Origin: Myxococcales bacterium | GTDB taxonomy: Bacteria; Myxococcota_C; UBA6777 | Assembly: GCA_027005175.1 (NCBI GenBank) | Contig: JALTMC010000623.1 | Coordinates: forward strand, 1 to 43,259 | DNA length: 43,259 nt | Direction of reading: 5' to 3' | Part shown: positions 2,930-36,961 of the stretch, in pieces | Layout: every line of letters begins with the position of its first letter | How positions within the stretch are numbered: the first letter of the stretch is position 1 | Notes under the pieces: generated by a model | Told to the model about the DNA's origin: nothing | Databases searched by the model: none | What the model saw: only the letters and a program-made list of their open reading frames with translations | Translations under genes and position numbers: made by a program

Positions 2930-3991
2930 ATGCATCCAATTTTACTCAAGTATCAATTGCCACAAGATTTTGTCGGTTTCTGGAGCTTTGCAGAGCCCGC
3001 ACGCCCTTACCTCGTGTTTCTCATCGCAGGAGCGGTGTTTTTGGCATTTTTTGCCTGGTGGGCACTCTCTGACGACTCCCCCTCTTCACTCAATCCTGTG
3101 GGTTGGGTTGGAACGCTCGCAGCTGCTGGAGCTGGCTTGACGGCGGGCTTTGTTGGTTTGCACCAGCTTCGGTTTGTCCAGCTTCATACCTACGGTGTGT
3201 TGGTGGCCATCGGATTCCTGGTAGGGATTGTACTTGCTGTACGAGAGGCACAGCGAACAGGGGAAGAGAGTGAGCGCATCCTCGACCTTGCGTTCTGGCT
3301 GTTGATCGCAGCGATGGTTGGAGCCCGCGCAGGCTATATTTTTACCCACTGGGCTGACTATGTTATCGATTTTTCCAAGAAAGTTCCCTGGTACCAGTGG
3401 CGTATCTTTCGTTTGTGGGAAGGTGGCTTGTTGTTCTTTGGTGGGTTCATCCTGGCAGGGCTTGTTTGCTTGGTCTTTGTTCGGGTCTATAAGATTGACT
3501 TTTGGAAGTTGGCTGACCTTTTGATTCCCTCTGTTGCGATCGGTCAGTTTTTTGGACTCATCGGTAGTCTTGCCGCTGGCTTTGGATATGGAAAACTTTC
3601 AGGTGCACCCTGGCGTGTGTTTATGCGTGGTGCTGAACGTCATCCCACACAGATGTATGAAGCCTTGGGCGTTTTGGCCATCTTCTTGTTGTTGCTCTGG
3701 ATTCGGAGCGTGAAGAAATACCACGGGCAAGCTTTTGTTTGGTATCTCATCCTCTATCCCATCCTCTCCTTTGGTGTTGAGATCTTTCAGAGTGACGCAT
3801 GTCTTCAAGGTATTACTCGTTATGTTGATGTATGTCGTGCGATGGTCTTTCACCGTGATGTCTTCCAGACCGTCGGAGACTTTGATATCCTTTCCTGGAG
3901 TCAGCTCTTCTCTGCTGTGGCAGTGCTCGCCGGTGTTGTTCTTCTTGTTGTACGAAGACAAAGCAGTCAACTTGCGGAAAAGAAAGCATAA
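2930..3991 (+). CDS. lgt: Prolipoprotein diacylglyceryl transferase paralogue 1 (divergent GR.GC motif)
   Basis: HTYGVLVAIGFLVGI, WEGGLLFFGGF and ERHPTQMYEA motifs, polytopic membrane profile. The region equivalent to GR.GCF..GCC.G reads GLIGSLAAGFGYG. Confidence 0.75.
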   Translation: MHPILLKYQLPQDFVGFWSFAEPARPYLVFLIAGAVFLAFFAWWALSDDSPSSLNPVGWVGTLAAAGAGLTAGFVGLHQLRFVQLHTYGVLVAIGFLVGIVLAVREAQRTGEESERILDLAFWLLIAAMVGARAGYIFTHWADYVIDFSKKVPWYQWRIFRLWEGGLLFFGGFILAGLVCLVFVRVYKIDFWKLADLLIPSVAIGQFFGLIGSLAAGFGYGKLSGAPWRVFMRGAERHPTQMYEALGVLAIFLLLLWIRSVKKYHGQAFVWYLILYPILSFGVEIFQSDACLQGITRYVDVCRAMVFHRDVFQTVGDFDILSWSQLFSAVAVLAGVVLLVVRRQSSQLAEKKA

Positions 3992-3997
3992 TTTGTC

Positions 3998-5014
3998 ATG
4001 CATCCCGTTTTGTTTTATTGGAAAGTTCCTGCAACTTGGCTACCATACTTTGGGCCTCAATCTCAGGTCTACAGCTTTTGGAAGATTCTGGCAGGTGCTT
4101 TTGTTGTCGCCTTCTTGGCATGGATGTGGGCAACCAATCCCGAACGAAAAACGCCACGTACCCTTTGGGTCTGGCTGTCCGGCCTGGCTGTTCTGGTCTT
4201 GGGCCTGCCGCTCTCAGGTCTTGGGTTGGTTCGAATTGGAGAGATTAAGCTTCACACTTATGGTGTGATGCTCTCTACTGCCTTTATTGTTGGGATTCTT
4301 CTCGCTGTACGAGAAGCACAACGTGTGGGGGAAAGTCCTGAGAAGATCCTCGATCTGACCTTCTGGATTTTGGTCTCTTCCATCATTGGTGCACGAGTTC
4401 TCTATATTCTCACCACTTGGCATGAATACTCTGGCAACTTGATCAAACTCACGCGAGTTTGGGAGGGGGGGCTGGTTTATTATGGCGGTCTGATCGGCGC
4501 AACCCTCTTCAGTTGGTGGTTTATGAGACGCAACAAGATGGATTTCTTGAAGGTGTCAGATATCCTCATCCCCTCCGTTGTTTTGGGACAGGCCTTTGGT
4601 CGCCTGGGCTGCTTCTCGGCTGGTTGTTGTTACGGCAAAGTTGCTCATGCTGGTATGAGCTGGGCCGTGAAATTTCCCTCTCCGCCCGCATCTTTGGGAG
4701 GCTGGATTCACCCCACACAGTTGTATGAAGCAAGTGCCAACTTGATGGTCTTTTTCATCCTGTTGCTGATCCGCTCTCGCAAACGATTTCATGGTGCTGT
4801 CCTTGTTGGATATCTCGTATGTTACTCCATTTTGCGATTTTTTATTGAAATTGTTCGCGGTGACAAAGGTCGTGGTTATCTGTTCCGATGGGATGTCTTC
4901 CCAAGTCTTGCGGGTCCAGAGTTCCTCTCTACCTCTCAAGTTGTCTCCATCTGCCTTATCTTCCTCGCTGTCGGCATTGTCTTCTGGCAACGCAAAAAAA
5001 ATGCTGTGGCTTAA
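3998..5014 (+). CDS. lgt: Prolipoprotein diacylglyceryl transferase paralogue 2
   Basis: HTYGVMLSTAFIVGI, WEGGLVYYGGLIGA, GRLGCFSAGCCYGK and HPTQLYEA. Begins 7 nt after the stop of paralogue 1, and both paralogues start MHP(I/V)L. Confidence 0.85.
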   Translation: MHPVLFYWKVPATWLPYFGPQSQVYSFWKILAGAFVVAFLAWMWATNPERKTPRTLWVWLSGLAVLVLGLPLSGLGLVRIGEIKLHTYGVMLSTAFIVGILLAVREAQRVGESPEKILDLTFWILVSSIIGARVLYILTTWHEYSGNLIKLTRVWEGGLVYYGGLIGATLFSWWFMRRNKMDFLKVSDILIPSVVLGQAFGRLGCFSAGCCYGKVAHAGMSWAVKFPSPPASLGGWIHPTQLYEASANLMVFFILLLIRSRKRFHGAVLVGYLVCYSILRFFIEIVRGDKGRGYLFRWDVFPSLAGPEFLSTSQVVSICLIFLAVGIVFWQRKKNAVA

Positions 5015-5057
5015 TACAAAAACAGCACCTTTCTTTCCTTGCCTCATCCGGAGAATT

Positions 5058-5457
5058 CGTCAACGACCCCCACCCTATCCGGCCTTTGTCCTGTAGATTC
5101 TACCGGGTTCGCGATCGGGAAGGAACTTGAAAAAGCCCGAAGTTGGTTAGCCTTATCCTGTAGATTCTGCCAAGTCCACGATCGGGAAGGGACAAAGCTT
5201 GAACAGGAATCATCCCTTTTGAGGTTTCTCCTGTAGATTCTGCCAAGTCCGCGATCGGGAAGGAACTTGAAAAGGCCCGAAGTTGACCAGCCTTAGCTCC
5301 TTCGCGGGAGCTACGTTACGTGCGAAAGTAGGTAGCCTGGCATGCTTCTCCAGTTCCAGGCTCTACGGACAACGATTCGTTTCGCTGTAGATTCTGCCGG
5401 GGCCGCCGTCGGAAGGGTGGTTTCCACACTCACAACATAAGAGGTTTTTTTCTGATG
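5058..5457 (+). repeat. Expanded copy of a dispersed repeat cassette (TGTAGAYTC core): three 35-bp units at 5089-5123, 5156-5190 and 5229-5263, a fourth degenerate core at 5383-5420, ending in SD+ATG of the next gene
   Basis: The unit tcctgtagattctRcc...cgatcgggaagg occurs 3 times with 32- and 38-bp gaps. The 32-bp segment after unit 1 recurs after unit 3 (aacttgaaaaRgcccgaagttgRNNagcctta). The 5' module cgtcaacgacccccacc..atccgg and the 3' module tttccac.c.cacaacataaRag.tttttttctgat also occur at 32959-33060, and the 3' module with the core occurs at 30992-31050 (minus strand). Confidence 0.9.
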
Positions 5458-6813
5458 AACAGAAGAAGCAAAGTGATAGCTCTGGCTTATGGTTTTGGGA
5501 TAGGATTGTTGGTGTGGTGTTGGATGGGGAGTGCCGATGCTCATATGACTTCGATGGGTACATTGCTGGCAAAAATTGTCCCAGAGAAACGACAGATCCG
5601 TGTGGTTGTTTCGGTGAGTCGTGACGATATCGGAACCTTTCTGAAGCTGGATAAAAATGCTGACAAGCGGATCAACGAAAGTGAGTTGTCGGGACATCGA
5701 CCGGCCATAGCTCGCTATATCAATGAACGGGTTGTCGTTAGCAACAACAGTCGTTTTTGTTCCGTAACACACCAGAAATACCTGCGTCGTCGAGAGGTTA
5801 TGAGCAAGCGACGCCTCTTCTTGCGACTGGTCTTTCATTGCGGGCAGCCTCTGAAAAAGATCGTCTTTGAAAACAAGATCTTGTTTGAAGACGTGGGGGG
5901 CTACAAGCATATGGGACGAATCCAATCAGGTCGCCAGGTCTTCACCACCATCTTTAATCGGATCTTTCCATCCTACTCCTTGGAGATTCGGGTGTTGCCC
6001 TCCTCGCCTGCGAAAGCGGGCTCCAAGGTTGCTCCTGTCAAACTAAAAACAGTCGTTGTCGGACGGGGGCTGTGGCAGGTGTTTGTGCGTTATATGTACC
6101 AGGGCGTTCTTCATATCCTGATCGGTATCGATCACATCCTCTTTGTCATCTGTTTGCTGGTGGCTGCCCAAAATGTCAGGCAACTGTTACTGGTGATTTC
6201 GGCCTTCACTGTGGGACACTCTCTCACTCTTATCTTGTGTGTCTTGGGTTGGGTGTCTGTTCCACAAGCCATGACAGAGGTCCTCATCGCTGTGACAATC
6301 GCCTATGTCGCAAGCGAAAATCTAGCAGAAGGCAAGTCGATTAAGTTGTTTCGTGGATTGATGTGGGGGCTGGCTGGGCTTTCTGCTATGGCGTTGATCT
6401 GGCTACTGGCAGTCCCTCTGCTGAAGAACAACCCTCTATGGCGCCCCATCGCTGTGGGAGCTAGCATGTTGCTGGCTATGGGCTTCTTTATCTATTACAC
6501 CCTGGATATCGACAAAATCGAACCGGCAAGCCATCGATTTTGGCTTACAGGTTTGTTTGGTTTAATCCATGGTGTGGGCTTCTCGTTTGTTCTTCAAGAA
6601 CTTCAGCTCCCCAAACAGGCGATGGTTCCAGCACTACTTTCCTTTAATCTCGGTGTAGAACTGGGGCAAATTGGTATCGTTCTCCTGATCTATCCCATGT
6701 TAAGGCGAGCCAACAATCACGAAAAGTATCCAAAGTTCCTAACAACAGTGAACACCTTGATCCTGTTGGCTGCTCTATATTGGGTGATTGTACGGACGTT
6801 TGGGCTGGAGTAA
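5455..6813 (+). CDS. HupE/UreJ-family membrane protein with an N-terminal periplasmic domain carrying an EF-hand-like loop
   Basis: Signal peptide (...WMGSADA/H), DKNADKRINESE (D.N.D..I...E loop), GVLHILIGIDHILFV (HupE/UreJ H...G.DH motif), C-terminal FNLGVELGQIG, 6-7 predicted TM helices. Confidence 0.6.
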   Translation: MNRRSKVIALAYGFGIGLLVWCWMGSADAHMTSMGTLLAKIVPEKRQIRVVVSVSRDDIGTFLKLDKNADKRINESELSGHRPAIARYINERVVVSNNSRFCSVTHQKYLRRREVMSKRRLFLRLVFHCGQPLKKIVFENKILFEDVGGYKHMGRIQSGRQVFTTIFNRIFPSYSLEIRVLPSSPAKAGSKVAPVKLKTVVVGRGLWQVFVRYMYQGVLHILIGIDHILFVICLLVAAQNVRQLLLVISAFTVGHSLTLILCVLGWVSVPQAMTEVLIAVTIAYVASENLAEGKSIKLFRGLMWGLAGLSAMALIWLLAVPLLKNNPLWRPIAVGASMLLAMGFFIYYTLDIDKIEPASHRFWLTGLFGLIHGVGFSFVLQELQLPKQAMVPALLSFNLGVELGQIGIVLLIYPMLRRANNHEKYPKFLTTVNTLILLAALYWVIVRTFGLE

Positions 6814-6922
6814 GGCATATCAAAACTTGGAGCACACTCCTTCTTTAGCAACAGTGACCTGCGCGACTTCACTCCCACAAGTGTAAACAAGTCAGAGCAT
6901 CCTACATTTGGGGCGTGCTGCT

Positions 6923-6990
6923 GAGACGGAAGGCTCTCACTATTGAGAATATCGCAATGCGGATTCTCAATAGTGAGAGCCTTCCGTCTC
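6923..6990. terminator. Perfect 28-bp-stem hairpin (12-nt loop) between convergent genes; probable bidirectional terminator or palindromic element
   Basis: gagacggaaggctctcactattgagaat / atcgcaatgcgg / attctcaatagtgagagccttccgtctc. No flanking T-tract. Confidence 0.5.
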
Positions 6991-7013
6991 ATTGTGTTGT
7001 AATGGAGTTGATT

Positions 7014-10346: not shown

Positions 10347-10997
10347 ATGAAGATAGCCATTCTGATTGGGCTTGTGATTGCAATTATTGCTGTTGTTGTC
10401 TTGTTGTTGCGCAACAACTCATCCTTAGAGAGTGACGAGGGCAACTCTTCACCACCTCCTTCCAACGATCCAAAGCCAAGCTCGATGAAAAAGCTTAACT
10501 GGATTCAAGGAGCAGGGGGAGAGGTGGGGGGGAAGACATACCATATTGGACAACGATCTGTGACGATCGGTCGCGCTCCCACCAACTTTATCCAAATTAT
10601 GGACCCGAATGTCTCACGTTTTCATGTTCGCTTAACCCCCGTCGACGATGGACTTGAGCTTCAGGATATGAACAGCTCAACAGGAACAAAAGTTAACGAT
10701 GAATTTGTGACAAAAGCTCGTCTGCACACTGGTGATACTTTTACCATTGGCGATGCTTTCTTCATCTTTCATAGGGAAGCCAACTATACCGTAAATGAGG
10801 GTCTTGTTGGTCGTAAAGATATTGGTGGGGACGCGATCAAACCCACACTGATAGAAGACGATGGTGAACTCATCAACAGTCTCGTGATGAAAGCACTTGG
10901 CGAGCACGGTGGTGATGTGATCAAAGTCGCACAGCTCACAAACCTCAGCGTTGATGTTGTCGAAAATATTCGCAACAAATACAAAGCTCGCTCCTAA
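10347..10997 (+). CDS. FHA-domain protein with N-terminal TM anchor
   Basis: VTIGRAPTNFIQIMDPNVSRFHVRL...LQDMNSSTGTKVNDEFV...LHTGDTFTIGDAFFIF matches the FHA consensus (GR...D..VSR.H...D..S.NGT.VN...GD...IG). Confidence 0.85.
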   Translation: MKIAILIGLVIAIIAVVVLLLRNNSSLESDEGNSSPPPSNDPKPSSMKKLNWIQGAGGEVGGKTYHIGQRSVTIGRAPTNFIQIMDPNVSRFHVRLTPVDDGLELQDMNSSTGTKVNDEFVTKARLHTGDTFTIGDAFFIFHREANYTVNEGLVGRKDIGGDAIKPTLIEDDGELINSLVMKALGEHGGDVIKVAQLTNLSVDVVENIRNKYKARS

Positions 10998-11065
10998 ACA
11001 AAGCTCGCTCCTAAACAAAGTTCGCTCCTAAACAAAGCTCGCAACAAAACAAAGCTCGCTCTTGA
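10981..11065. repeat. 17-bp tandem repeat x5 (acaaagctcgctcctaa) starting with the last codons and stop of the FHA gene
   Basis: Units at 10981, 10998, 11015, 11032 and 11049. Unit 1 encodes ...KARS-stop. Lies between convergent genes. Confidence 0.95.
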
Positions 11066-11176
11066 GCGAAGTTTGATTCTTCTTGTGTTGTGGAGTGGGG
11101 GTACTGCACTTCGGCTGTGATGTCGAGCCCTTAGACCTCGCAAAATCGAAAGGTTCTTCTGGGCGAGTGCTTGGTT

Positions 11177-23771: not shown

Positions 23772-23945
23772 GATCGTTTCCATACGATCGTTCCCATACT
23801 CTTTGAACATTCGAGATCGTTCCCATGCTCTTTGAACACTCAAGATCGTTCCCATGCTCTTTGAACATTCGAGATCGTTCCCATGCGATCGTTCCGATGC
23901 TCTTTGAACACTCGGGATTGTTTCCATGCGATCGTTTCTATGTTT
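23772..23945. repeat. Mosaic tandem array: 14-bp core GATCGTTYCCATRC x9, four of them extended to 29-bp units (core + tctttgaacaYtcRR)
   Basis: 29-bp units at 23786, 23815, 23844 and 23887. 14-bp-only units at 23772, 23873 and 23916. The array begins 9 nt after the kinase stop and lies between convergent genes. Confidence 0.9.
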
Positions 23946-25971: not shown

Positions 25972-26039
25972 GTCTCTTTCGAAGTGTAAAGGAAGTGAGG
26001 CTTTCGTCTCTTTCGAAGTGTAAAGGAAGTGAGGCTTTC
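25972..26039. repeat. Perfect 34-bp tandem duplication (gtctctttcgaagtgtaaaggaagtgaggctttc x2) in the leader of the SQR-like gene
   Basis: 25972-26005 is identical to 26006-26039. Confidence 0.95.
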
Positions 26040-28299: not shown

Positions 28300-28364
28300 T
28301 TACCTGTTGACTTTCATGGAAGCCGTTGGCTTTCATGAAAGTCAACAGGTAAGGTTGTTTTTTG
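28300..28364 (+). terminator. Rho-independent terminator after the DUF1641-TusE gene
   Basis: 19-bp perfect stem (ttacctgttgactttcatg / catgaaagtcaacaggtaa), 15-nt loop, followed by ggttgttttttg. Confidence 0.7.
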
Positions 28365-29973: not shown

Positions 29974-30083
29974 GCTTGCGAGAAGGGGATAGCTAGGTTT
30001 CAGCGATATATTCTTTACATTGCTCTGCCATCATGAACCTCCTGTCATGCTTACGAGAAGGGGATAGCTAGGTTTCAGCAATA
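29974..30083. repeat. 35-bp direct repeat (75-bp period); the second copy contains the last codons and stop of the desaturase-family gene
   Basis: gcttRcgagaaggggatagctaggtttcagcRata at 29974-30008 and 30049-30083, with 2 mismatches. Confidence 0.9.
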
Positions 30084-30994
30084 CCTTTCTCTAAGGTCGA
30101 TTTTTCTTTTGTATGTTGTAGGTTCTGTTGAAATAGAGGGTAGAGCACTTGGTGCGTGAAGTCTTCCGGAAAGGTTTCGATACCGGGGAAGCCCAAGGGG
30201 ATGTCTCGTCCGTTGCTGGGGATATATGCGGTGCCAAAGAGATAATCCCAGAGACTTAAAGTCAGCCCATAGTTCATTCCGTAGGGGCGATCTTCGGGAA
30301 GGTCGCGGGCATGGTGCCAGATATGCATCTGGGGATTGTTGAAGATATACTTGAAGGGTCCTAGTGGAAGCTTGACATTGGAGTGATTAAAGTGACCCAT
30401 GGTGATCGCAAACATATGCACCACGAAGAAGTCCTGGACACCAAATCCAATCATCGCCAATGGGATATATTCAATGGTTCGGTATACCAGGGTCTCCATC
30501 CAGTGGTATCGAAACTGAGCCGCAAATCCCATCTCTCTTACAGAGTGATGTACCTTGTGAAAGTTCCAAAGGGTGGGGACACGGTGCAATAAGCGATGCA
30601 CGTTAAATTGAATAAAGTCACGCACCACAAACATTGTGAGTAACTTGGCCCAGACCGGCCAGGACTGGATATGAATCATGACTAGGTTTTTGATTCCAAA
30701 CCATCCCAAAAACTGGTTAAATCCGTGGACCAAAACATTCGTTAATGCAGCGTAACCAATGAGTGAAAAGAGAAATACGTTGAAAAACATATAGAAGCCA
30801 TCAAGCCAAAAACCCCGACGTATGACGGCTTGCTCTTTGCGCCAGGGAAGCATGATCTCCCACAGCCAAAACAACAAAGAGACTGTCACCAGACCATAGA
30901 AAAAACTGTGCCAGGACGGCTGGGTAATGTCTGTCCACAGGTAATGTCCATATCCTGTAAATGAGTCGATTATGATATTCAGATATTCTCTCAT
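30068..30994 (-). CDS. Fatty-acid hydroxylase / sterol-desaturase superfamily membrane di-iron enzyme
   Basis: Three His boxes: HRLLH, HKVHH, HIWHH. 4-5 TM helices. Start at ATG 30994, preceded by the cassette SD (aagaggtttttttctgATG). Confidence 0.8.
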   Translation of the reverse strand: MREYLNIIIDSFTGYGHYLWTDITQPSWHSFFYGLVTVSLLFWLWEIMLPWRKEQAVIRRGFWLDGFYMFFNVFLFSLIGYAALTNVLVHGFNQFLGWFGIKNLVMIHIQSWPVWAKLLTMFVVRDFIQFNVHRLLHRVPTLWNFHKVHHSVREMGFAAQFRYHWMETLVYRTIEYIPLAMIGFGVQDFFVVHMFAITMGHFNHSNVKLPLGPFKYIFNNPQMHIWHHARDLPEDRPYGMNYGLTLSLWDYLFGTAYIPSNGRDIPLGFPGIETFPEDFTHQVLYPLFQQNLQHTKEKSTLEKGIAET

Positions 30995-31050
30995 CAGAAA
31001 AAAACCTCTTATGTTGTGGGCGTTGAAAATCCCTGCAGAATCTATAGGCC
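30992..31050 (-). repeat. Truncated copy of the TGTAGAYTC cassette, supplying SD+ATG of the desaturase-family gene
   Basis: Minus strand: cctatagattctgcagggattttcaacgcccacaacataagaggtttttttctgATG. The last ~30 nt are near-identical to 5428-5457. Confidence 0.85.
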
Positions 31051-31334
31051 GACATTCCGCACTGAACATATGACTTTTGGGATTATTGACGAAATCATTG
31101 AACTTTTGCTCTCCTAGAAAAAAAATACGCGACTTAATCTGATAGACAAATCAGAGTAAGTCTCAGGTGATTGCTTATTCAGATGAGTGTGTTTTATCGA
31201 ATTACAACCATGATATTGAACGCATTTTCACTCTATATTCCAGTTTTTCAAAAACGATGTGCGGAATGTCGGTATAGGAGTTACCTTATATCTTCTTTCC
31301 CAAAGAGACAATACCACCCGGTTCGGTTTTATTG

Positions 31335-32634: not shown

Positions 32635-32958
32635 TAGACTTTGAGCGCCGTTCTCCAAAACTTAGACAAATCTACCCAGAGGGTAAATTGATGTTTGGTT
32701 GACGCTTCAACGAAAGAGCAGGATCGATTCTTGCTCCTATAGGATCGACAACTCAACAATATTGACTATAGATAATTACTCCCATACAAGTAAGAGCAGT
32801 GTTAAGGACGTTTGAATGATGCCGACAATTTAATATATCGTAGGGTTCGCGGGCCAACAAGAAAGCTGGAAAGGTTGTTGGATCAACGATCCTACAACTC
32901 TCGCAGTATAGCTGTGCTGAGAAAAAATACTATCGTTTTTTATTATAACAATCCATGG

Positions 32959-33060
32959 CGTCAACGACCCCCACCTCATCCGGACTTCGTCCTGTAGACT
33001 CTACCAGGCCCGCGATCGAGAGGGGGTTTCCACGCCCACAACATAAAAGTTTTTTTCTGA
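32959..33060 (+). repeat. Compact (~100 bp) copy of the TGTAGAYTC cassette
   Basis: cgtcaacgacccccacctcatccggacttcgtcctgtagactctaccaggcccgcgatcgagagggggtttccacgcccacaacataaaagtttttttctgat joins the 5' and 3' modules seen at 5058-5123 and 5383-5455. The terminal ATG is ATA here. Confidence 0.9.
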
Positions 33061-33125
33061 TAATTGTGTCACTCCTGCACAAGAAGGAGTGTTTTCACAC
33101 CACACCAAACCAACAGAAGGACCCC

Positions 33126-33971
33126 ATGCAACAAAGTCACGAGCTATTCCATATCCACCTTGTCTCCGATGCTTCAGGAGAGTTAACCGATCTACTGGCA
33201 CGCTCAGCGATCGCCCAACTGGAGGGTGTGATGGTGGAGAGGCATTTATGGAATATGGTTCGAAAGACAAGTGATGTAAAAGAAGTACTGATCGGAGTAG
33301 AGAAAGACCCAGGCATGGTTCTACATACGGTTCTTTCGCGAAAAACCCGACAGTTACTTGAAGAAGGCTGCCGTGCTCTTCATGTGAAATGCATCGCAGC
33401 ACTAGAGCCATTTGTTGAAGCCTTTGCAGAACACTTCGGAGCCCCCATTCATTACCGACCCACACAATACCTCCGCGACAACGATTATTACCGACGTATG
33501 GAAGCCATGCGTTTCAGCCTTCGTCATGACGATGGACAAATCGCCTATGGCCTAGATGAAGCAGATATCATCCTGTTTGGTGTCTCTCGAACATCAAAGA
33601 CCCCTCTATGTGTCTATCTGGCCAACCGTGGCTACAAGGCAGCCAACATCCCTGTAGTACCGGGACTTCCGCTACCAGAATACGCTTTAAAAGTTGACGT
33701 GCCTTTAAAAGTAGGCCTGACCATGGATCCGTCGATACTGGCTGATCTTCGACGCCAACGATTGCGAAAAAGTGGATGGCAAACTCCAGACCCCGAATAC
33801 GCCAACACGTCAGCAGTAGCCCGAGAGGTTGCAGAAGCCCGTCGATTGTACCTACAACAAGGTTGGCCTGTCGTGGATACAACCATGCGATCTGTGGAAG
33901 AGATCGCTGCCAGTATCATAAAGATATTCTTGCGACGAACCTCCCGACGAGCCAGTGCCCTTCATCAGTAA
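33126..33971 (+). CDS. Pyruvate, phosphate dikinase regulatory protein (bifunctional kinase/pyrophosphorylase, DUF299/PpsR family)
   Basis: HLVSDASGELT, ADIILFGVSRTSKTPLCVYLANRGYKAANIPVVPG (P-loop). Adjacent to ppdK. Start at ATG 33126; the upstream ORF extension runs across the repeat cassette. Confidence 0.85.
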   Translation: MQQSHELFHIHLVSDASGELTDLLARSAIAQLEGVMVERHLWNMVRKTSDVKEVLIGVEKDPGMVLHTVLSRKTRQLLEEGCRALHVKCIAALEPFVEAFAEHFGAPIHYRPTQYLRDNDYYRRMEAMRFSLRHDDGQIAYGLDEADIILFGVSRTSKTPLCVYLANRGYKAANIPVVPGLPLPEYALKVDVPLKVGLTMDPSILADLRRQRLRKSGWQTPDPEYANTSAVAREVAEARRLYLQQGWPVVDTTMRSVEEIAASIIKIFLRRTSRRASALHQ

Positions 33972-34045
33972 GAACACCATGACTTGCCATGGTTTCTGCA
34001 AAAGGCAAGTTCCACCGGAAGCTCTCTGTTTTGAGTGTCAACGAA

Positions 34046-34301
34046 GAATCACATCAACGAAAAGTCTCATCAACGAAGAGTCTCATCAATGAAGAGTCAC
34101 ATCAATGAAGAGTCACATCAATGAAGAGTCACATCAATGAAGAGTCACATCAATAAAGAGTCTCATCAATGAAGAGTCACATCAATAAAGAGTCTCATCA
34201 ACAAAGAGTCACATCAATGAAGAGTCACATCAATGAAGAGTCTCATCAATGAAGAGTCTCATCAATGAAGAGTCTCATCAGTGAAGAGTCACATCCGTGA
34301 G
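34046..34301. repeat. 16-bp tandem repeat x16 (GAGTCWCATCAATGAA) between the convergent PDRP and ppdK genes
   Basis: Units in register from 34046 to 34301. There are two unit variants (GAGTCACATC / GAGTCTCATC). 15 of 16 units contain GANTC. Confidence 0.95.
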
Positions 34302-34315
34302 GGATCGAAAGAGGG

Positions 34316-36961
34316 TCAACGAGTGAGGATGCCATACTCATTCTTGATGGCAGCTTGTGCGGCGGCAAGGCGAGCAATGGGAACGCGGTAGGGGCTACAA
34401 GACACATAGTCGAGTCCCACTCTATGGCAGAACTCTATGCTGGAAGGCTCTCCACCGTGCTCCCCACAGATTCCCAACTTGATACCGGGTCGAGTCTGAC
34501 GTCCTTTGACAACAGAGAGCTTGATGAGTTCCCCAACACCTGCGCGATCGAGGACCTGGAACGGATCGTATTCGTAGATGCCAAGCTCCACATACCGCTG
34601 CAGAAACTTTCCAGAGTCATCACGGCTGAAACCACAACCCATCTGCGTCAGGTCATTGGTGCCAAAGCTGAAAAACTCAGCTTCTGTTGCAACTTCATCA
34701 GCGGTGAGAGCCGCACGAGGGACTTCAATCATCGTTCCAATTTTGAAGTGGTCAAGCTCTTTGCCATGCTCCTGTTTGAGTTGTTCATACACGTCCAGAA
34801 CAACCTTCTTTTGGTGCGCCAACTCTTTCACATTACCAACGAGCGGGATCATAATCTCAGGTTTGGAGCCAGGGACAGCATACGCTGCCTCGATCACAGC
34901 GCGAGCTTGCATCGCCGTGATCTCAGGATAGAAGATACCGAGGCGACAACCACGATGACCCAACATGGGGTTAAATTCATGAAGTGCTGCCACAGTGTCT
35001 TGAATGTGTTGAAGACTGGTCCCTGTCGCCTCTGCCATCTCCTCTTGGCCTTCCTTGTCGTGAGGCAAGAACTCATGTAGGGGTGGGTCAAGAAAGCGGA
35101 TTGTGGCCGGTTTACCATCCAAAGCCTTGAAGATTCCGATAAAATCCTCACGTTGGTAGGGCAACAACTCATCGAGACTCGCTTTGCGTTCGTCTTCATT
35201 GTCAGCCAGGATCATCTTACGCATGGAGACAATCCGCTCTCCTTCAAAGAACATATGTTCGGTTCGGCACAAACCGACTCCTTCCGCACCAAACTTAATC
35301 GCCACAGCGGTATCCTGAGGAGAGTCTGCGTTTGTGCGGATACCGAGCTTTCGGTATTGATCAGCCAACGTCATGATCGTTCTAAAGGGACCTGTCAGTT
35401 GTGGGTCAACAGTATCGATTTCCCCCTGATACACCGTACCCCGAGAGCCATTAAGGCTGAGCCAATCTCCTTCCGAGAGAGTGGTGGAACCAAAGGTTAC
35501 GGTCTTTGCATCATGGTTGATCACAGCCTCTGGACAACCCGCGACACAACACTTGCCCATCCCACGAGCAACAACGGCGGCATGGCTCGTCATACCACCT
35601 CGGCTCGTAAGAATCCCGCTCGCAACATTCATCCCACCAATATCTTCGGGGCTGGTTTCAACCCGAACCAGTATCACTGTTTTTCCCTGGTCACTCCAAG
35701 TTTCCGCATCATGAGCTGAAAAAACGATCTGGCCTGTGGCTGCTCCAGGGCTTGCAGGTAGCCCCTTCGCCAGAATCACTGCACGATCCTCTGCGCCGGG
35801 ATCAAAGGCTGGATGCAGTAATTGATCAAGCTGATTCGGATTGACCCGCAACACCGCTTCTTCTTCGGAGATCAAGCCCTCGTTCATCATATCAACCGCG
35901 ATTCGAACAGCGGCGGCTGCGGTTCGTTTGCCATTCCGTGTTTGCAGAATATACAGCTTGCCCTGCTCTATCGTAAACTCTAGATCTTGCATCTCAAGAT
36001 AGTGTTTCTCTAGCTTGGAGCGAACCTCAACCAGCTCGTCAAAGCAGGATTTATCCACACTTTCCAGGTGACTGATCGGTTGGGGTGTACGAATCCCAGC
36101 CACCACATCCTCACCCTGGGCGTTCATTAGGTATTCACCATAAAACTCATTGGTTCCATCGGAGGGATTGCGTGTAAACGCCACTCCAGTACCGCTGTCT
36201 TCCCCCATGTTCCCAAAGACCATGGCCTGAACATTGATCGCTGTTCCAATCAATCCACGGATGTCATTGATCTCACGATACTTCTTTGCGCGGGGATTGT
36301 TCCAGCTACCAAAAACGGCATTGATGGAAGCCTCCAACTGCGCTCGCGCATCTTGTGGAAACGATGTGTTGTTTTGGTCATAAACATCTTTGTATTCTAC
36401 GATCACTTCCTTCAAAGCTTCAACACTAAGCTCTGTATCACTCTTAACCTTGTATCGTTCTTTCACCTGTTGTAAGGCATCTTCAAACTCATGATGCTCA
36501 ATCCCCAACACCACATCCCCAAACATCTGAAGAAACCGTCGGTAGGCATCCAGAGCAAAGCGCTCATTCTGGGTGAGTTCGATTAAAGCGGGCAAGGTCT
36601 CATCGTTTAAGCCCAAGTTGAGGACTGTATCCATCATCCCTGGCATCGAAATCGCAGCTCCCGAACGCACCGAGAGTAGAAGAGGGATAGGGCCACGACC
36701 AAAGGTCTTGCCTGTCAGTTCTTCGAGCTTCTCAATGTTCGTGGTAATTTGTTGTTCAAGCCCTTCAGGGTAGGAGTGATTGAGCTTATAATACAGATCA
36801 CAAACCTCCGTTGAGATGGTAAAGCCCGGTGGAACAGGAAGACCGATACTCGACATCTCCGCAAGATTGGCTCCCTTCCCGCCAAGCAACTGCTTCATCT
36901 TTGCGTTGCCTTCCGAAGCATTTCCCCCAAAGAGATAGACATACTTTGTACTCTCGCTCAT
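34316..36961 (-). CDS. ppdK: Pyruvate, phosphate dikinase
   Basis: 881 aa. KYVYLFGG...LLGGKGANLAEM..GLPVPPGFTISTEVC, GGMTSHAAVVARGMGKCCV (phospho-His loop), FFSFGTNDLTQM, ICGEHGGEPSSI. Confidence 0.95.
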   Translation of the reverse strand: MSESTKYVYLFGGNASEGNAKMKQLLGGKGANLAEMSSIGLPVPPGFTISTEVCDLYYKLNHSYPEGLEQQITTNIEKLEELTGKTFGRGPIPLLLSVRSGAAISMPGMMDTVLNLGLNDETLPALIELTQNERFALDAYRRFLQMFGDVVLGIEHHEFEDALQQVKERYKVKSDTELSVEALKEVIVEYKDVYDQNNTSFPQDARAQLEASINAVFGSWNNPRAKKYREINDIRGLIGTAINVQAMVFGNMGEDSGTGVAFTRNPSDGTNEFYGEYLMNAQGEDVVAGIRTPQPISHLESVDKSCFDELVEVRSKLEKHYLEMQDLEFTIEQGKLYILQTRNGKRTAAAAVRIAVDMMNEGLISEEEAVLRVNPNQLDQLLHPAFDPGAEDRAVILAKGLPASPGAATGQIVFSAHDAETWSDQGKTVILVRVETSPEDIGGMNVASGILTSRGGMTSHAAVVARGMGKCCVAGCPEAVINHDAKTVTFGSTTLSEGDWLSLNGSRGTVYQGEIDTVDPQLTGPFRTIMTLADQYRKLGIRTNADSPQDTAVAIKFGAEGVGLCRTEHMFFEGERIVSMRKMILADNEDERKASLDELLPYQREDFIGIFKALDGKPATIRFLDPPLHEFLPHDKEGQEEMAEATGTSLQHIQDTVAALHEFNPMLGHRGCRLGIFYPEITAMQARAVIEAAYAVPGSKPEIMIPLVGNVKELAHQKKVVLDVYEQLKQEHGKELDHFKIGTMIEVPRAALTADEVATEAEFFSFGTNDLTQMGCGFSRDDSGKFLQRYVELGIYEYDPFQVLDRAGVGELIKLSVVKGRQTRPGIKLGICGEHGGEPSSIEFCHRVGLDYVSCSPYRVPIARLAAAQAAIKNEYGILTR

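Follow-up and report, generated by a model that had tools for sequence, protein, structure and literature searches.

What is the repeat cassette that fills the spacer between lgt and a hupE-like gene in a Myxococcales genome? The locus lies on contig JALTMC010000623.1 (assembly GCA_027005175.1), all 43,259 nt of which were analysed and are here called the window; the source is a hydrothermal-vent metagenome-assembled genome (MAG), and the window is one whole contig of it. The original prediction had described repeats with CRISPR-like spacing and proposed an amplifiable, possibly mobile promoter or leader cassette, or a structured leader RNA. Our analysis indicates that the cassette, referred to as copy A, is most probably a non-autonomous, protein-less derivative of an ISC transposon, namely of its omega-RNA (HEARO) end. 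The name ISC covers the IscB/IsrB members of the IS200/IS605 superfamily (Kapitonov, Makarova & Koonin 2016, PMC4810608). The HEARO/omega-RNA homology, absent from the original prediction, explains the anatomy of the cassette.

Copy A spans 396 nt from GTCAAC to CTG and directly adjoins a conserved ATGA; its boundaries are the positions at which about 20-90 other copies cease to match (coordinates of all features are given in the table). Repeat searches confirmed the four units noticed originally, 33-35 nt long (TCCTGTAGATTCTRCC...CGATCGGGAAGG) and mutually 79-97% identical, which start 67, 73 and 154 nt apart. A 14-mer core, CTGTAGAYTCTRCC, is present in the window in five exact copies and in eight with up to two mismatches (chance expectation 0.71). 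A 71-nt block at 5085-5155 recurs at 5225-5295 with 87% identity, showing that the first and third gaps between units (L and L') are copies of each other; the middle gap S could be aligned with neither. The arrangement is thus modular, U-L-U-S-U-L', and not one of repeats and unique spacers, as had been recognised from the start. The predicted long-range pairing of CCCCACC with GGGTGG also holds in silico: the 5' module forms a duplex of -24 kcal/mol with unit 4, as compared with about -14 to -16 kcal/mol with units 1-3, the pairing is part of the minimum free energy fold, and in compact copies it becomes a single long hairpin.

The nature of these modules became apparent from a comparison with RNA families. 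At curated gathering thresholds no Rfam family matched the locus. In a sensitive Rfam scan, HEARO (RF02033) matched 5233-5467 over the full-length model (1-211) with 30.8 bits, corresponding to an E value of 1.5e-4 locally (601 nt) and 0.011 window-wide, and this was the sole omega-like match. The best-aligned stretch (5280-5370) contains GUUGACCAGCC, a 5-bp hairpin, CUACGUU and the hairpin CCUGGCAUGCUUCUCCAGUUCCAGGCUCU. An exact pattern derived from the core hairpin (5336-5364), with three positions left free, matched 17 loci, one on a viral contig of IMG/VR and 16 on metagenome contigs. In 12 of the 17, an open reading frame (ORF) with an IscB N-terminus (..VFVLD..KPLMPC..) begins 82-228 nt downstream; the one on contig L115 carries RRXRR (1e-70) and HNH domains. 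Seven of the ten loci tested exceed the curated HEARO threshold, scoring 93-156 bits. When copy A, with one 140-nt duplication period taken out, was aligned with ten of these loci, all canonical omega-RNA blocks were found to be common and in the same order: GTCAAC-NA-CCC, the long hairpin, CTTGAAAAGG, GTTGACCAGCC, a hairpin, CTACGTT, the CCUGG..CCAGGCUCU hairpin and AACAU..AGG. The sequence CACAACATAAGAGG in the 3' module is the counterpart of the conserved omega-RNA motif AAUAACAUUGGCGAGGAG. The third omega-RNA hairpin is poorly matched in copy A and unit 4 stands in its place, and stem P1 has to jump the 140-nt internal duplication. Judged by its sequence, the element appears clearly derived from an IscB-type omega RNA, yet degenerate as one.

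The omega-RNA framework also accounts for the repeats. The unit corresponds to the 3' arm of the long hairpin at the SL1 position, and L and L' each to SL2 and the P1 3' strand; U-L-U-S-U-L' is therefore probably a local tandem triplication of transposon-end modules. In omega RNAs the 5' stem region (S1, SL1 and SL2) is itself the transposon end (Hirano et al., PMC9581776), and the scaffold adjoins the transposon boundary with the guide lying outside (Meers et al. 2023, bioRxiv 10.1101/2023.03.14.532601). Among the loci examined, three HEARO matches above the Rfam threshold are followed by no IscB ORF within 330 nt downstream (L122 6780-6976, L127 3344-3584 and L124 389-622). L122 and L127 lie on loci of 12.8-13.9 kb; the absence is weaker for L124, a 1.3-kb contig. 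Stand-alone omega RNAs thus occur in other environmental genomes.

Copy A is the long member of a family of miniatures. The compact form, represented in the window by copy B and by the decayed copy C, is made of the 5' module, one unit and the 3' module (~100 nt). Copy C has lost the 3' half of the unit and the 3' strand of the hairpin (~17 nt, ...CGCGATCGGGAGGG-GG) and retains an intact 3' module. All three window copies are co-oriented with the downstream gene. The suspicion of a mobile, amplified family was borne out by some 90-150 source-metagenome contigs with unrelated flanks: the 5' module, unit and 3' module matched 91-148 Logan contigs of the source run, and summed depth rose from 5-13x in the flanks to ~1100-2500x on the modules. 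It was highest on the 3' module, at up to ~2500x against 5-8x in the flanks. The compact form is accordingly present in roughly 100-300 copies in the source metagenome. The matching contigs skip ~295-325 nt, passing from ~5100-5123 to 5419, and so represent the compact form. In the metagenome, essentially one copy of the omega-RNA core (5274-5355) exists; just its 44-nt hairpin recurs, in other flanks. No second long copy and no parent element was found among the Logan contigs of the source run.

The family has sharply defined ends. Its sequence starts with GTCAAC (5059 in copy A, 32960 in copy B) and continues to ...TTTTTTTCTG-ATGA. At least 24 junction contigs retain ATGA and then split 14:5:3:2, as random flanks would, and variation between copies is mostly confined to the hairpin apex. 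A 16-mer, GTCAACGACCCCCACC, too short for a collection of 596 Gb of genome contigs, had 112 loci there, all by chance and none with the rest of the element. The 5'-module plus unit pattern had no match in JGI metagenomes or IMG/VR, which therefore lack the organism. The four open frames of the element had no matches in the protein collection. A second dispersed repeat, unrelated to the family, lies just 5' of copy B (32775-32896); in run X1 its depth of ~174x, against 12.6x in its flanks, suggests roughly 10-15 copies.

We then examined the insertion site. In silico excision of 5059-5454 gives ccGGAGaattc^ATGAAC, placing a Shine-Dalgarno (SD) sequence five nt before the ATG, and an empty lgt-hupE allele is predicted to read GGAGAATTC-ATGAAC. 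Orthologues of the HupE-like protein (50-56% protein identity) occur in kept ileS-lspA-lgt-lgt-hupE synteny, where the lgt-hupE spacer measures 34, 113 and 119 nt in syntenic relatives as opposed to 440 nt here; no related element was found in the lgt-hupE spacers of the relatives (L116-L121). Their signal peptides start 26-33 residues before AHMTSMGT, and the one encoded here starts 29 residues before it; because the starts agree in position, ATG 5455 is the hupE-like gene's own. The same holds at copy C, which adjoins ATGAGA. Here the ATGA (30994-30991) is the native start codon of a fatty-acid hydroxylase gene, and orthologue N-termini (MKEYIDIIIASY, MEKYLNIFFGSF) correspond to MREYLNIIIDSF at the same start. 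An ATG belonging to the element as a former iscB start codon was rejected, given that the orthologues of both host genes start there and that the reconstructed hupE site has GGAG five nt before ATG. The original proposal that the 3' end of the cassette provides both ribosome-binding site and ATG is borne out in its first part insofar as an SD-like AAGAGG (5439-5444) lies 10 nt before the ATG, and fails in its second, the start codon being native and ATGA the family's target. AAGAGG is the sole SD-like sequence in range of the hupE ATG and probably stands in for the displaced SD; in genuine omega RNAs the same motif belongs to the conserved 3' region and does not act as a dedicated ribosome-binding site.

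Empty-site comparison has shown for several ISC families that they begin with 5'-GTCA and use N|ATGA as their insertion site, which they leave unduplicated; related elements use ATCA or ATAA (PMC4810608). Copy A has no target-site duplication and no terminal inverted repeats, its ends being non-complementary and the locus without inverted repeats. IscB elements are likewise co-oriented with their upstream gene (Meers et al. 2023). All junction features, that is the GTCAAC start, N|ATGA or ATAA, lack of duplication and co-orientation, fit the published ISC description.

Mechanical ORF calling runs through the element at both other copies in the window. The fatty-acid hydroxylase frame is called at 30068-31069 (-), 333 aa instead of the true 308 aa, and the pyruvate phosphate dikinase (PPDK)-regulator frame at 32955-33971 (+), 338 aa instead of 281 aa. 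The element family will produce N-terminal over-extension in annotations.

Table. Coordinates in the window of copy A, its modules, the further copies and the insertion site, with the helices counted in copy A.
Feature	Position	Strand	Basis or remark
Native SD GGAG of the hupE-like gene, now ~400 nt from the start codon	5050-5053	+	Empty-site reconstruction
Long copy A, probable protein-less ISC (IscB-type) derivative, GTCAAC to CTG termini	5059-5454	+	Ends of other copies; HEARO RF02033 match; omega-RNA alignment
Transposon 5' terminus and 5' strand of omega-RNA stem P1/S1, GTCAACGA	5059-5066	+	Fits HEARO consensus GUCAacua; ISC 5'-GTCA terminus (PMC4810608)
Long hairpin (SL1/P2 position): 5' strand CCCCCACCCTATCCGG and unit 1 (core 5091-5123)	5067-5123	+	Folding; also the body of compact copy B
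Module L: SL2-like CTTGAAAAAG and G.U-containing copy of the P1 3' strand (GTTGGT)	5124-5155	+	87% identity to L' within the 71-nt repeat; P1 pairing 6/8
Second tandem period: unit 2 (core 5158-5190) and filler S, unrelated or diverged (5191-5228)	5156-5228	+	Repeat search
Third period: unit 3 (core 5231-5263) and L'	5229-5295	+	HEARO alignment, high posterior probability from here on; helix counts
Contents of L': SL2 CTTGAAAAGG; P1 3' strand GTTGAC (5282-5287); pseudoknot 5' strand CCTTA (5291-5295)		+	
Omega-RNA core: hairpin GCTCC..GGAGC (5296-5311), CTACGTT (5311-5317), conserved hairpin GCCTGGCATGCTTCTCCAGTTCCAGGC (5335-5361)	5296-5375	+	Strongest stretch of the HEARO alignment
Unit 4 (diverged); its 3' half is the best partner of the 5' module	5385-5417	+	79% identity to unit 3; duplex -24 kcal/mol
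3' module: TTTCCACACTCACAACATAAGAGG, T7, CTG	5418-5454	+	Omega-RNA alignment; highest-copy part of the family
ATGA, insertion target motif and native hupE-like start codon	5455-5458	+	Junction contigs; orthologue starts; N|ATGA documented for ISC
HupE/UreJ-family membrane protein gene, 452 aa	5455-6813	+	PF13795 (HupE_UreJ_2), 3e-42
Copy C, decayed compact copy, begins GTCAATAATCCC	30995-31090	-	BLAST of the consensus against the window
Compact copy B	32960-33059	+	Flanked by ATAA (33060-33063); next gene starts 66 nt on
P1 with L' (GTCAAC/GTTGAC)	5059-5066 with 5280-5287		6/8 pairs
P1 with L	5059-5066 with 5140-5147		6/8 pairs, two of them G.U
Hairpin after P1			5/5 pairs
Core hairpin			7/8 pairs
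Pseudoknot			4/5 pairs
Long-range stem			About 6/11 pairs

These observations can be assembled into a history of the locus. The full-length parent ISC element would have had an omega RNA starting GTCAACGACCCCC and an element end ...CTG|ATGA. Insertion would have been carried out in trans by a Y1 (HUH) TnpA, through single-strand 'peel-and-paste' 5' of the 4-nt target ATGA and without duplication. ATGA is a start codon followed by A, which would explain why insertions often lie directly before gene starts, as in two of the three copies here. The miniature form may have arisen by deletion between direct repeats, the 5'-hairpin unit and unit 4, with loss of the omega-RNA core; a deletion between these two in the long copy would give precisely the compact form, and when aligned to the long copy, positions 1-65 and 33-105 of the compact consensus overlap. 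The compact form could then have proliferated, long copy A resembling a surviving, rearranged intermediate in which the hairpin 3' half, SL2 and the P1 3' strand would have been triplicated (periods of 67 and 73 nt) via slippage or unequal recombination between units. The element would now be transcribed via read-through. A promoter and terminator scan of 4900-5600 detected neither a sigma-70-like promoter nor an intrinsic terminator pattern; read-through from lgt is therefore most likely, and the idea of a promoter cassette has to be given up.

Several observations weigh against this interpretation. Copy A scores 30.8 bits where the curated HEARO threshold is 83 bits, so that the gathering threshold is not reached, and the compact copy by itself gives no Rfam match. 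The 43-kb window contains no IscB/IsrB, TnpB or TnpA gene (tblastn of the window with seven IscB proteins gave a best E value of 0.15), and no full-length parent was found, the search not having extended to the rest of the genome. The element-free sites come from family-level relatives (50-56% protein identity) and not from same-species alleles. The compact form shows one obvious hairpin where canonical IS200/IS605 ends have one each, and its transposition competence is putative. No separate hairpin was seen in the 35-nt 3' module. Nor can this module and unit 4 together be read as a classical second transposon end bearing a hairpin, for unit 4 lacks a complementary strand close by and pairs just with the remote 5' module. 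Finally, the placement of two of three readable copies exactly on start codons, where ~13% would be expected if all intergenic ATGAs were equal (P about 0.05), rests on three copies and is suggestive only.

The placement at start codons invites a bolder reading, which we consider possible though doubtful: that the element practises transposon 'start-codon-docking', with an ATGA target that equals ATG plus A, insertion or survival before starts, and AAGAGG-N10, built from the omega-RNA GAGG motif, serving as replacement ribosome-binding site. In a weaker variant, the long copy might still be usable as a guide RNA for an IscB acting in trans. Were docking true, more than 100 genes would be translated from a transposon-supplied 5' untranslated region (UTR) with a stable hairpin, amounting to a genome-wide rewiring of translation initiation by the relic of a Cas9-ancestor transposon.

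Copy A could also still function as an omega RNA on its own: read-through from lgt would transcribe it, the 16 nt upstream of GTCAAC would be its guide, and it would direct a trans-acting IscB, encoded elsewhere in the genome, to cut element-free alleles (homing or retention). The kept block order, intact P1 and two hairpins, and four of five pseudoknot pairs agree with this, as do co-orientation with the upstream gene like that of genuine IscB omega RNAs, the occurrence elsewhere of ORF-less HEAROs above the Rfam threshold (L122, L124 and L127), and the compatibility of ATGA with an NTGA-type target-adjacent motif (TAM). For IsrB, an NTGA TAM with activity on ATGA has been reported (PMC9581776). 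However, copy A reaches 30.8 bits where genuine omega RNAs reach 93-156, its triplicated 5' domain forces P1 to span 220 nt, a repeat unit replaces the third hairpin, the long-range stem retains about 6 of 11 pairs, 40-150 nt of 3' scaffold seen in real loci are lacking, and no IscB was found in the window. We regard a working omega RNA as unlikely; with its degenerate scaffold and no IscB gene in the vicinity, copy A is most likely dead as a guide RNA.

Somewhat less likely still is a REP/REPIN-type family (REP, repetitive extragenic palindrome) moved by a RAYT, a domesticated TnpA, in which the omega likeness of copy A would be secondary, for example through recombination of a REPIN with a HEARO remnant. 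A ~100-nt intergenic hairpin in more than 100 copies and a GTAG/CTAC motif in the unit recall such families, and REPs are protein-less relatives of IS200/IS605. REPs and palindrome-associated transposable elements (PATEs) have both been described as such relatives in work on ISC transposons that ascribes mobilisation to Y1 TnpA in trans (PMC4810608). However, the 5' terminus of the element, GTCAACGACCCC, equals the HEARO 5' consensus and the 3' module aligns with the omega-RNA AACAU..GAGGAG motif; the element is asymmetric, with different 5' and 3' tails, and not an inverted doublet; and its N|ATGA junction resembles that of ISC elements.

A dedicated cis-regulatory leader, riboswitch-like or an attenuator, for the HupE-like metal transporter gene has very little to recommend it. 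The element does take up the entire 5' UTR, has a very stable predicted fold (-135 kcal/mol for 400 nt) and ends at a ribosome-binding site and start codon. The same element, however, precedes unrelated genes (those for the fatty-acid hydroxylase and the PPDK regulator) and occurs at about 100 other loci, the syntenic orthologues have short, element-free spacers, and there is neither an Rfam riboswitch match nor a terminator-like site. The leader reading is largely refuted by the dispersed copies. Of the structured leader RNA in the original prediction, two points survive: the cassette does form the leader of the gene, and its ancestor was a gene for a structured RNA. That it is a leader or riboswitch dedicated to hupE does not, the syntenic relatives being without the element.

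The triplicated long form might instead be an assembly chimera created from a high-copy repeat. It is unique in the sample, and an NCBI MAG contig (L114) breaks within the element, beginning at window position 5429. The same sequence was nevertheless recovered in an independent ENA assembly (L113, identical over 4901-5600) and in a single Logan contig of run X1 that covers 4735-5458 with zero mismatches, and contigs from a second sample, X2, extend across the internal junctions (5083-5238 and 5374-5612, zero mismatches). Because these three sources agree, the long structure is not an assembly artefact, and a chimera is hardly to be entertained.

A degenerate CRISPR-like array, suggested by regular ~33-nt repeats with 32-38-nt gaps, can be dismissed, as two of the 'spacers' share 87% identity, the repeats have just 79-97% and are halves of a hairpin, the flanks are homologous to omega RNA, and the 43 kb contain no cas genes.

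Some neighbouring features deserve mention in their own right. The tandem duplication of lgt (2930-5014) within the ileS-lspA-lgt-lgt-hupE order is also kept in the relatives L116 and L120 at ~55% protein identity, and LspA here has a long extension with a 72-nt coding repeat (2317-2460). Within the first ORF, the IleRS C-terminal region at the very start of the contig, 37 nt are repeated directly and without mismatch (92-128 and 164-200, 72 nt apart). The named closest homologues (61-69% identity) of the fatty-acid hydroxylase/sterol desaturase gene (30068-30994, -) are almost all from Bacteroidota (Pontibacter, Saprospiraceae and Cyclobacteriaceae), which may reflect the organism's affinity or gene transfer.

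Other repeats are found throughout the window. The convergent intergenic region of the PPDK-regulator and pyruvate phosphate dikinase genes holds a tandem array of ~23 units with a 16-nt period (33990-34357), and further intergenic arrays have periods of 17 nt (10964-11080, ACAAAGCTCGCTCCTAA) and 29 nt (23786-23929, GATCGTTCCCATGCTCTTTGAACAYTCRA). A perfect 34-nt duplicate lies in intergenic sequence at 25972-26039. Short intergenic tandem arrays of this sort seem to be common in the genome. Just downstream of the hupE-like gene lies an inverted repeat of 29 nt without mismatch (6922-6991), and another, of 25 nt (28300-28352), follows a DsrC-like gene; weak Rfam 'microRNA' matches at these two sites (MIR8562 and mir-3119) were rejected as hairpin artefacts.

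The cassette is most probably a known kind of selfish element, an ISC derivative resembling PATEs and miniature inverted-repeat transposable elements (MITEs), and not a new regulatory device. Its exotic look is explained by known transposon biology, which avoids misannotation as a riboswitch, CRISPR remnant or promoter cassette. As a protein-less IscB-type descendant in an uncultured vent bacterium, the family is nonetheless unusual both for its small size (~100 nt) and for its many copies (~100-300). Copy A appears to preserve an intermediate state in which an omega-RNA core coexists with tandemly amplified transposon-end modules. Two of the insertions part genes from their native ribosome-binding sites and leave the omega-RNA-derived AAGAGG in exchange. 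The ATGA preference of some ISC families can put elements exactly at start codons, with consequences for gene-start annotation, and the expression of many genes may be affected by the family.

Known systems resemble the family to different degrees. The Correia elements of Neisseria are MITEs, high-copy miniatures located just upstream of genes that are co-transcribed with them and can alter expression signals; they have terminal inverted repeats, TA duplications and promoter elements. The family described here differs in having neither terminal inverted repeats nor TA duplications and no promoter-like motif. With REP/REPIN sequences and their RAYTs it shares the ~100-nt intergenic hairpin repeat, hundreds of copies and a tie to IS200/IS605 Y1 transposases, whereas REPINs are symmetric inverted doublets without omega-RNA homology or an ATGA junction; no RAYT was found here, its presence in the genome lying beyond the reach of the search. 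PATEs and PATE-like omega-RNA mini-elements, the existence of which was noted by Meers et al. (2023), are likewise protein-less and short, keep the end sequences, presumably depend on TnpA in trans and sometimes carry guide-RNA sequence. PATEs, however, keep both end hairpins, while the family here has one hairpin and a 35-nt tail, and its end is of the IscB type and not the TnpB type.

Compared with HEARO itself (RF02033), copy A is sub-threshold and has a triplicated 5' domain, a unit in place of the third hairpin and a truncated 3' scaffold; a host gene (HupE_UreJ_2) and not iscB lies downstream, and miniature copies lack the entire core. It nevertheless matches the HEARO/IscB omega RNA in the order of blocks and helices (P1, SL1, SL2, pseudoknot strand, hairpin, CUACGUU, CCUGG..CCAGGCUCU and AACAU..AGG), in its strand and position relative to the transposon end, and in co-orientation with the upstream gene. 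Among complete transposons, the relevant comparison is with the N|ATGA ISC families, ISC1-1_MA of Microcystis and ISC2-1_MS and ISC2-2_MS of Marinobacter (PMC4810608). The family here differs from these in that it has no IscB/IsrB ORF, measures ~100 nt (400 nt when expanded) and not ~1.3-1.8 kb, ends in ...CTG and not ...CG, has no recognisable separate 3' hairpin, and is present in ~100-300 copies where 4-46 were reported. What it shares with them is the 5'-GTCA terminus, insertion 5' of ATGA (ATAA for copy B) without duplication, the lack of terminal inverted repeats, a 5' subterminal hairpin, and a multi-copy, non-autonomous way of life.

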